Source: Candidatus Segetimicrobium genomatis | GTDB lineage: Bacteria > Sysuimicrobiota > Sysuimicrobiia > Sysuimicrobiales > Kaftiobacteriaceae | Length of the DNA stretch: 64,000 nucleotides | Reading direction: 5' to 3' | Assembly: GCA_005882335.1 (NCBI GenBank) | Contig: VBAP01000009.1 | Span: forward strand, 48,303-112,302 | Part shown: positions 51,944 to 53,338 of the stretch, one piece after another | How positions within the stretch are numbered: position 1 is the stretch's first letter | How the letters are laid out: each line of letters starts with the position of its first letter | Made by a program: the position numbers and the translations under genes | The notes under the pieces: generated by a model | Database searches by the model: none | Told to the model about the DNA's origin: nothing | What the model saw: the letters and a program-made list of their open reading frames with translations, nothing else

Positions 51944-52042
51944 GAGGATCCGGAGCCAGCTCGCCTCCGGGTCATTGCTGTCCGCTGGCCTGCCTGGAGT
52001 GTGGCTGTGCCCCGAACGAAGTCGGTCCGCGTACTCCCGGGC

Positions 52043-53338
52043 TCATGGCGCCACCTCCCCGGACTGACTGGTACGGGGCTTTGCCCGGCGCCGGAAGCGC
52101 GGGGGGACTCGTCGCCGCCCCTTGCGCAGGATAATCCCCATCAGATCGTCGACCGTCACCACCCCGACCAGCCGGCCGTTGGCGTCGAGCACCGGCAGGG
52201 CCAGCAGGTCGTACTTGGTGAGCGCAGCGGCCACCGTCTCCAGGTCGTCATCGGCAGACAGGGCGATCACCTTGCGGGTCATGATCTCGGAAATCAGCTG
52301 GGCGGGACGTGCCACGATCAGCGCCCGCAGGGGGAGGACGCCCACCAGCTTGCGGCCGGCATCGATCACGTAGAAGTAGAAGATTTGCTCGGCCTCGGGC
52401 GCGAGCTCGCGCAGCCGTTGCAGGGTCTGCTCGGCGGTGAGGCCCTCGGGCAGCGCGACGACTTTGGTGGTCATCACACTCCCGGCAGTGCCCTCAGGGT
52501 ACTTGAGCAGTTCTTTGACATCCTGGGCCTCTTCAGGCGCCATCAAATTGATGAGCTTTTCGGCCCTGGCCGGCGGCAGGTCGGTGAGGACATCCGTGGC
52601 GTCGTCGGGGGACATCTCCTCGAGAATGTCCGCGGCGAGGGCGCTCGGCAGACTCTTCATCACATCGGCCTGCACCTCTGGTTCGGCCTCGGCGAGTGTC
52701 TCGGCGGCGGCCTCGTGACCCAACGCGGTCATGACCTCCACCCGCTCGTCGCGATCGAGGTCTTCCATCAGCTGGCCCAGGTCGGCGGGATGGATCTCGC
52801 GAAGCCGCTCACGCGAGATGCTGAGCTTGACGGGTGTGAGTGGACCGCTGAACGTCGCGACCATCTTCCACGGGATCACCCTGTCCGGCAGCGCCCGGCC
52901 GACCAGCCGCACCAACCGCTGCACCACACCGTCCAGGCTCAACCGGCGCAGCAACCCAAGGGTTCCCACATCGGCCGCCACCAGGCGCACCTCGCTGTTC
53001 GCCTGGGACAGTTGCAGGTCGTTGACCCGCACGACCTTGAGGCCGTCCGTGTCCACGACCTGTGTATCCAGAATGTCTGCGAGAAGCATCTCGTCCGGCT
53101 GCAGCGGCCGGGGGTGCAGGAACCGGCGGGCCACCCGGAGGCGGACCTGTTGGGGGTCCAGCGTCTCCACGGCGTCCCGGGGGATCAGCGCGACCCGGCT
53201 GCGATCCGCGCGCATGCACAAACCGGTGACTCGGGGCAGCGGATCCCGGAGGTCTACCGCGACATCTCCGACGGTTCCCAACCTGACGCCTTCGGCATCG
53301 ACGATAGGCGCGTGAATGAGGCGGCTCAGATAGAGCAT
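52043..53338 (-). CDS. cytoplasmic MgtE-N + tandem CBS domain protein lacking the MgtE transmembrane domain (with N-terminal PRC-barrel-like region)
   Basis: MgtE_N helices (LREIHPADLGQLMEDLDRDERVEVMTAL...) and a CBS pair (VMTTKVVALPEGLTAEQTLQRL...IFYFYVIDAGRKLVGVLPLRALI...IMTRKVIALSADDDLETVAAALTKYDLLALPVLDANGRLVGVVTVDDLM). It ends ...GRRRVPPRFRRRAKPR with no TM segment. Confidence 0.7.
   Translation of the reverse strand: MLYLSRLIHAPIVDAEGVRLGTVGDVAVDLRDPLPRVTGLCMRADRSRVALIPRDAVETLDPQQVRLRVARRFLHPRPLQPDEMLLADILDTQVVDTDGLKVVRVNDLQLSQANSEVRLVAADVGTLGLLRRLSLDGVVQRLVRLVGRALPDRVIPWKMVATFSGPLTPVKLSISRERLREIHPADLGQLMEDLDRDERVEVMTALGHEAAAETLAEAEPEVQADVMKSLPSALAADILEEMSPDDATDVLTDLPPARAEKLINLMAPEEAQDVKELLKYPEGTAGSVMTTKVVALPEGLTAEQTLQRLRELAPEAEQIFYFYVIDAGRKLVGVLPLRALIVARPAQLISEIMTRKVIALSADDDLETVAAALTKYDLLALPVLDANGRLVGVVTVDDLMGIILRKGRRRVPPRFRRRAKPRTSQSGEVAP

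Follow-up and report, generated by a model that had tools for sequence, protein, structure and literature searches.

What would a Mg2+ sensor without a channel of its own be doing beside the gene of a metal ion transporter? The question is raised by two adjacent genes on the minus strand of a Candidatus Segetimicrobium genomatis contig (phylum Ca. Sysuimicrobiota), within the 64,000 nucleotide (nt) stretch of DNA analysed here, termed the window, whose positions are used for numbering throughout. The upstream gene encodes a protein resembling the cytoplasmic part of the Mg2+ channel MgtE, and the downstream gene a member of the Nramp family. The original prediction, made from the sequence of the window, was of either a detached divalent-cation sensor partnering with the transporter, or a decayed fusion of the two. 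On balance, it appears probable that the upstream gene product is a detached Mg2+-sensing regulatory subunit, which would close a uniporter of the NRMT type when cytosolic Mg2+ suffices. Among bacterial Mg2+ importers, the NRMTs (Nramp-related Mg2+ transporters) form the fourth class. The pair consists of three features, arranged as follows.

52043..53338, minus strand: the sensor gene, encoding a PRC-PRC-MgtE_N-CBS-CBS protein of 431 amino acids (aa) followed by a TGA stop codon, as defined from its open reading frame (ORF), translation and Pfam matches.
51944..52042, minus strand: a non-coding, lineage-specific spacer of 99 nt.
50687..51943, minus strand: the NRMT-type gene, encoding 418 aa (Pfam Nramp, PF01566, E = 1.6e-96).

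Canonical Nramp or MntH (Slc11) proteins are Mn2+/Fe2+:H+ symporters, in which a methionine provides a soft ligand and histidine residues serve in H+ coupling. The downstream gene had been labelled mntH when the locus was originally described, a name that does not withstand comparison with characterised proteins. Searched against all PDB sequences, its product matched the solved Eggerthella lenta transporter EleNRMT (7QIA) with an E value of 2.1e-115 over 401 residues, other solved Nramp-family proteins being matched at 7e-23 or more weakly, and it scored 120 bits with the NCBIfam MntH model, for which the cut-off is 430. The canonical motifs DPGN, in transmembrane helix 1 (TM1), and A..MPH, in TM6, are both missing from the protein, which reads DANG and TTITPW...Q. 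The ion-binding site of EleNRMT retains Asp55 in helix alpha1 and Gln379 in alpha10, with Asn replaced by Gly58 in alpha1, Ala by Thr224 in alpha6, Met by Ala227 and the two alpha6b histidines by Trp and Asn; this protein carries Mg2+ and Mn2+, not Ca2+, and exhibits no H+ coupling (PMC8806188). The window transporter has D34, G37, T203, T206, W208, Q213 and Q358 at this site, the Met and both His having gone. Across a set of 61 Nramps, comprising the window's own and 60 unique proteins encoded beside sensor homologues, the Gly and the equivalent of Thr224 are invariant, and the Met position is occupied by Thr in 35 and Ala in 26, never by Met. Judged by its sequence, the transporter is an NRMT and not MntH, and H+-uncoupled Mg2+ transport can be regarded as its putative activity. 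The labels MntH or 'Mn transporter' borne by the adjoining NRMT genes in other genomes are likely wrong.

The upstream gene product can be divided into five regions.

53114..53338, minus strand: PRC barrel 1, residues 1-75, delimited by homologue alignment and AlphaFold2 (AF2) models.
52859..53092, minus strand: PRC barrel 2, residues 83-160, delimited in the same manner and containing the invariant motifs RPLQ, QVVD and KVVRVND.
52490..52795, minus strand: the MgtE_N helical domain, residues 182-283, including E213, D245 and D249 (Pfam and residue mapping).
52127..52486, minus strand: the CBS pair, residues 285-404, including D377, D398 and G401 (Pfam and residue mapping).
52046..52126, minus strand: a basic C-terminal tail, RKGRRRVPPRFRRRAKPRTSQSGEVAP, occupying the place of the acidic MgtE plug helix (E258, D259).

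This agrees with the original description of an MgtE_N domain and two CBS domains behind a PRC-barrel-like region, without a transmembrane domain, with the refinement that there are two PRC barrels. The Pfam matches to PRC (3.6e-12, in two stretches), MgtE_N (6.6e-28) and CBS (4.1e-20, in two stretches) were unaccompanied by any to PF01769, the MgtE membrane domain, and no membrane segment was evident in the protein: the highest Kyte-Doolittle mean over 19 residues was 1.57, such that no segment exceeded 1.6, against 81 such segments in the Nramp protein. Among solved structures, the best match to the sensor was the cytosolic domain of Thermus thermophilus MgtE (2YVY; E = 3.6e-49, residues 175-404), and a Foldseek search with a model of the whole protein retrieved MgtE and CBS proteins only, in agreement with this homology; the PRC barrels were consequently modelled separately. 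Likewise, the NCBIfam mgtE equivalog model (TIGR00400) scored 192 bits, below its cut-off of 232.75, and was aligned over positions 20-254 of 450 only. The sensor therefore lacks the five-helix pore and plug helix that define an MgtE channel, and possesses the MgtE_N domain and CBS pair with their acidic ligands, except at G401. It also carries the PRC beta-barrel fold (PF05239), and across 79 proteins the conservation of PRC barrel 2 equals that of the domains derived from MgtE. The plug-helix ligands have been exchanged for a run of arginines that opens the basic tail, reading LRKGRRRVPPRFRRRA in the close clade; more distant clades have other tails, still mostly basic, and over their final 28 residues the 79 proteins carry a net charge of +3.6 on average. 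With pLDDT values below 50 in the window protein, the tail is predicted to be disordered. The exact sensor protein has been deposited as TMI76881.1 under the annotation 'MAG: magnesium transporter', which is misleading for a protein without transmembrane segments.

The residues through which MgtE binds Mg2+ have been assigned to a series of sites, with D91 and D247 forming Mg4, D226 and D250 forming Mg5, D95 contributing Mg6, E59 Mg7, and the plug-helix residues E258 and D259 Mg2 and Mg3 (PMC5882242). Mapping those of the cytoplasmic domains onto the window sensor and 80 unique relatives gave the following correspondences.

E59 (Mg7): E213 in the window protein; Glu or Asp in 79 of the 80 relatives.
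D91 (Mg4): D245 in the window protein; Asp or Glu in 77 of 80.
D95 (Mg6): D249 in the window protein; Asp in 80 of 80.
D226 (Mg5): D377 in the window protein; Asp in 58 and Asn in 17 of 80.
D247 (Mg4): D398 in the window protein; Asp in 70 of 80.
D250 (Mg5): G401 in the window protein; Asp or Glu in 65 of 80.

By this alignment, some 80 partner proteins keep the Mg2+-ligand residues found at the interface between the N domain and the CBS pair of MgtE. The site at which the channel binds ATP (PMC5529423) has fared differently at different positions. The equivalents of Y170 and R187 are present in the window protein (Y321 and R338) and invariant among the partners; the position of D188 is variable, being A339 in the window protein, and where MgtE has the adenine-stacking F227, 78 of the 80 partners have Leu (L378 in the window protein). 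Given the last two differences it is doubtful that ATP modulates these proteins, and such modulation may have been lost.

That a gene of this type can adjoin an Nramp-related transporter gene, which the original prediction took to be undescribed, was reported by Shin et al. in 2014 (PLoS Genet 10:e1004429; PMC4072509), who discovered the NrmT transporters, found a gene for an MgtE cytoplasmic domain beside most genes of the NrmT clade and already speculated that it might exert cytoplasmic feedback regulation. We surveyed the extent of this linkage using loci from four genomes, 80 metagenome loci and the contigs of individual homologues. A scan of the genome collection with a single protein query returned just four close relatives, and the survey therefore rests on a metagenome scan with an alignment of 43 homologues, which yielded at least 576 confirmed relatives. 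Only loci with 250 nt or more of sequence downstream of the sensor gene were counted, 82 in all; in 78 of these, encoding sensors of 36-98% identity from at least three phyla, an NRMT-like gene lies directly downstream on the same strand. Confinement of the arrangement to this genome had been set beforehand as the outcome that would count against a partnership, and the survey of neighbours proposed at that time instead finds it in several unrelated neighbourhoods. The linkage is not just conserved but often translationally coupled: the commonest junction, present in 49 loci, is an out-of-frame 4-nt ATGA overlap, and with the 1-nt overlaps of five further loci, 54 of the 78 pairs overlap. The pair sits between era and recO in the window, as in L001, L002 and L004, whereas in another clade it is flanked by the genes of an acetyltransferase and a PALP enzyme, and in further lineages by other genes again; since the flanking genes vary between lineages, the pair moves as a unit. 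Across 66 loci, the identity of the sensor to that of the window co-varies with the corresponding identity of the NRMT (r = 0.91). Together with the frequency of the linkage and the conserved Mg2+ ligands, this correlation lends support to the predicted partnership of a detached cation sensor with the transporter. A search with EleNRMT itself identified Eggerthellaceae proteins 91-92% identical to it, whose genes follow, at a distance of 3-4 nt, a gene encoding a PRC-MgtE_N-CBS protein of 450 aa, and hence the lineage of the crystallised transporter has the partner gene as well.

Two of the four exceptional loci (L037 and L039) contain the PRC-MgtE_N-CBS module fused to an MgtE pore in a 618-aa protein, and the other two contain orphan copies of the sensor gene, considered below. 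A different type of variation was observed in L073 (positions 3959..4600 of that locus), and likewise in L063, L083 and L086, where a 213-aa ORF directly upstream of the sensor gene makes a three-gene cluster with the NRMT gene; its product resembles the PRC pair only, with about 32% identity to residues 3-181, and has no Pfam match.

Fusions of the module to other transporters proved to be informative as to its likely function. The PRC pair alone (residues 1-172) was used as a phmmer query against 1.84 billion representative proteins, giving 485 clusters at E <= 1e-10, and nearly all of the best 150 of these have the match at the N-terminus or close to it. One length group within these 150, of approximately 410-460 aa, corresponds to the soluble form. 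Another, of approximately 590-660 aa and accounting for roughly 20 of the 150, includes proteins with an MgtE pore domain (P0244 and P0271) and one (P0247) that matches the NCBIfam mgtE model over its full length without a match to PF01769; an example of a full-length MgtE with PRC barrels is encoded by L037 at 3190..5046, and another by L039. These PRC-bearing MgtE channels are likely to be either the source or a derivative of the soluble NRMT partner. In addition, a protein of 1314 aa has the module ahead of an entire ATPase of the MgtA type, which scores 1120 bits with NCBIfam TIGR01524 (cut-off 611). Fusions of this type form seven clusters (P0266 and P0404-P0409) of 1265-1318 aa and 57-100% identity, and their origin from four sources (NCBI, JGI, ENA and Logan) indicates that the architecture is real; the gene encoding one of them (L099/L100, 4001..7948) directly follows zip and mgtC genes. 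The module is thus associated with three unrelated types of Mg2+ importer, and of the indirect arguments this is the strongest for an action of the free-standing copy on the adjacent NRMT and for Mg2+ as the ion that it reads. A further group of proteins from Coriobacteriia (P0382, P0430, P0433 and P0434, the last encoded at L097 4001..6346), of 749-781 aa, has PRC-MgtE_N-CBS followed by a hydrophobic C-terminal region without a Pfam match.

The mechanism that we propose is one in which an NRMT, importing Mg2+ (and Mn2+) without coupling, would be co-expressed with a detached cytosolic regulatory subunit. Such a subunit would have kept the whole cytoplasmic part of MgtE, gained two N-terminal PRC barrels and acquired a basic tail in place of the plug helix and pore. 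In its closed state the sensor would dock onto the NRMT from the cytoplasmic side and block further uptake, so that an otherwise ungated uniporter would gain the feedback control that MgtE has built in. That the two proteins touch, in which direction the regulation runs and which ion is sensed are points that we infer. More tentatively, the PRC-PRC-MgtE_N-CBS module might be a portable Mg2+ feedback gate, operating in cis on MgtE pores and MgtA-type ATPases and in trans on NRMTs, with the PRC pair as an integral part of either the sensor or its docking surface. For EleNRMT, a carrier of solved structure that works uncoupled, no off-switch is known. A divalent cation importer driven by the membrane potential needs a brake, and the obvious candidate is the partner gene that Shin et al. 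mentioned in 2014. Were the module such a portable gate, EleNRMT would to date have been investigated in the absence of the subunit that regulates it physiologically.

Whether the two genes might instead derive from one depends largely on the spacer between them. The observations that had suggested so were confirmed by reading the sequence: the sensor gene ends with a TGA at 52043-52045, the 99-nt separation amounts to 33 codons without a stop, and also without an ATG, GTG or TTG, and the NRMT ORF follows in the same frame. These could be the traces of a fusion, decayed from a former sensor-transporter polypeptide or recoded such that the TGA is read through today, and there is one metagenome ORF, P0431 (967 aa; L096, 1601..4504), that joins the module to an Nramp sequence; nevertheless, we consider this reading highly improbable. 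The TGA is genuine, as the 431-aa protein has the same stop in independent assemblies, namely L001 (an NCBI metagenome-assembled genome), L012 (JGI) and, within its 90% cluster of 19 members, most of those listed. At the 65% GC content of the window, 58% of random 33-codon stretches would be stop-free, which, multiplied by the one in three probability of a common frame, gives an expectation of about 0.19 by chance. Only eight of the 78 pairs have a common frame, two of these being near-identical copies of that in the window, while in the closest relatives the two genes are out of frame throughout, with a gap of 13 nt at 89% identity, a gap of 19 nt at 84% and an overlap of 4 nt at 73%. The 99-nt gap is itself limited to the window and two 98%-identical copies (L001 and L012). 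Relative to L001, it differs at 5 of 99 positions (5.1%), with one synonymous and four non-synonymous changes to its in-frame codons, as against 35 of 1296 positions (2.7%; 27 synonymous, 7 non-synonymous) for the sensor gene and 46 of 1257 (3.7%; 36 synonymous, 7 non-synonymous) for the NRMT gene; faster divergence than either gene and a preponderance of non-synonymous changes mean that the spacer is not under coding constraint. No second copy that would mark it as a mobile or repeated element was found within the window, and it matches no Rfam family. The spacer is in frame and stop-free by coincidence, without functional meaning. As for P0431, it was judged to be an assembly chimera: P0431, P0432 and P0449 have a near-identical sensor core joined to Nramp, RND and MATE sequences at differing break points, and all are from singleton ENA scaffolds, while the related genuine protein of 781 aa, P0434, is not encoded beside an Nramp gene. 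These three sequences could pass for fusions in surveys of domain architecture.

Between two separate proteins, a Mg2+ gate acting on the NRMT is likewise not the sole reading, and a number of observations weigh against it. The Clostridium acetobutylicum transporters complemented without their partner, rescue was no better when the partner from Acidobacterium capsulatum was co-expressed, and the transporter of the latter species seemed to prefer Mn2+ (PMC4072509); similarly, EleNRMT is active alone in liposomes (PMC8806188). The ion preference of the window transporter is uncertain, as it has Thr at the Met position and Asn at that of Glu133, and its partner has Gly in place of one Mg5 ligand and shares the loss of the adenine-stacking Phe. 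No M-box or other credible Rfam match was present between positions 44000 and 60000 of the window at E <= 1, nor did an M-box reach the gathering threshold in any of 15 related loci, and the orphan copies (L078 and L088) have no adjoining Nramp gene. Complementation without the partner and the existence of the orphans are compatible with mere co-regulation, the CBS protein having an unrelated cytosolic role and no physical interaction with the transporter. This is improbable, as it sits poorly with linkage in 95% of loci spanning such divergence, with stop/start overlaps typical of subunits made in a fixed ratio, with the co-varying divergence of the two proteins and with fusion of the module in cis to two other transporter classes. 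A partner acting on the NRMT in some way other than as a Mg2+ gate, whether as a sensor of Mn2+ or adenine nucleotides or as a metal chaperone accepting the imported ion, is rather unlikely, yet has more in its favour. The chaperone and Mn2+ alternatives were raised by Shin et al. alongside the apparent Mn2+ preference of the A. capsulatum protein (PMC4072509), EleNRMT itself carries Mn2+ (PMC8806188), CBS pairs commonly bind nucleotides and the Y170 and R187 equivalents are invariant, and the split between Thr and Ala at the Met position hints at transporter subtypes. By contrast, the residues conserved in the partner are the hard-oxygen Mg2+ ligands of MgtE, the MgtE pores and MgtA pumps to which the module is fused are both dedicated to Mg2+, and the Phe that would stack against adenine has been almost universally replaced. 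A detached subunit closing the NRMT in response to Mg2+ is the reading that we continue to favour.

The surroundings of the pair in the window comprise a string of genes on the same strand.

55557..56840, minus strand: a CNNM/CorB-type gene, at the start of the listed minus-strand gene string.
Between this gene and era, minus strand: a DUF502 gene and then cdd.
53415..54587, minus strand: era, directly upstream of the sensor gene.
53351..53356, minus strand: a Shine-Dalgarno-like GGAGGT, 12 nt 5' of the sensor ATG, read from the sequence.
49885..50679, minus strand: recO, followed by glyQ and glyS.

The CNNM/CorB-type gene, with a DUF21-CBS pair-CorC_HlyC architecture, belongs to a putative Mg2+ efflux family and lies co-directionally about 2.2 kb upstream of the pair. 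The era ORF, as called mechanically from a TTG start, has approximately 95 N-terminal residues unlike Era, with Pfam domains from about residue 100, and the true start is probably internal. A promoter consensus scan around the pair returned no promoter-like sites, and terminator-like matches in the same region were near the expectation from shuffled sequence.

The window pair is an additional example, from a little-studied phylum, of a gene pair published in 2014, and by itself brings no new principle; it is the survey that makes the question of a feedback gate directly testable. What appears worth following is the wider pattern, consisting of the PRC barrels, the fusions to MgtE and MgtA and the presence of the partner beside the EleNRMT lineage. 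The partner is not mentioned in the description of EleNRMT (PMC8806188) or in the later reviews examined; in the literature searched, nothing was found combining PRC barrels with MgtE, or, from 2015 onwards, joining NRMT and MgtE with regulation by the cytoplasmic domain.

With the NrmT operons of Shin et al. (that of Ca_c0685 in C. acetobutylicum, and ACP_2976/2977 in A. capsulatum), the window shares a separate gene for an MgtE cytoplasmic domain that neighbours, in the same orientation, a gene of the NrmT clade. An M-box is frequently, but not universally, found upstream of those operons, whereas the window pair has none. The partner is a small protein by the description in that paper, in which PRC barrels are unmentioned, whereas the window protein and all 80 relatives examined are approximately 410-460 aa in length and have two PRC barrels at the N-terminus. 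With EleNRMT (PDB 7QIA, 7QIC, 7QJI and 7QJJ; Ramanadane et al. 2022, eLife), the window transporter shares the equivalents of D55, G58, T224, W229 and Q379, and differs in having Thr206 for Ala227, Asn36 for Gly57, Asn112 for Glu133 and Gln213 for Asn234; furthermore, EleNRMT was studied as an isolated monomer. The N domain and CBS pair of T. thermophilus MgtE (2YVX, 2YVY, 2ZY9 and 5X9H) are homologous to the sensor over about 230 residues, the ligand positions of Mg4, Mg6 and Mg7 and one of the two of Mg5 being kept in the window protein. Unlike MgtE, the sensor has neither plug helix nor five-helix pore, has Arg at the positions of E258 and D259 and has two extra PRC barrels; any action that it exerts would be in trans, on a carrier of the LeuT fold that is unrelated. 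Other PRC-barrel proteins (PF05239) include the archaeal CdpB1/CdpB2 (8QZO), the C-terminal domain of RimM and the H subunit of the reaction centre; in the sensor, the barrels are instead located at the N-terminus of a Mg2+-sensor module.

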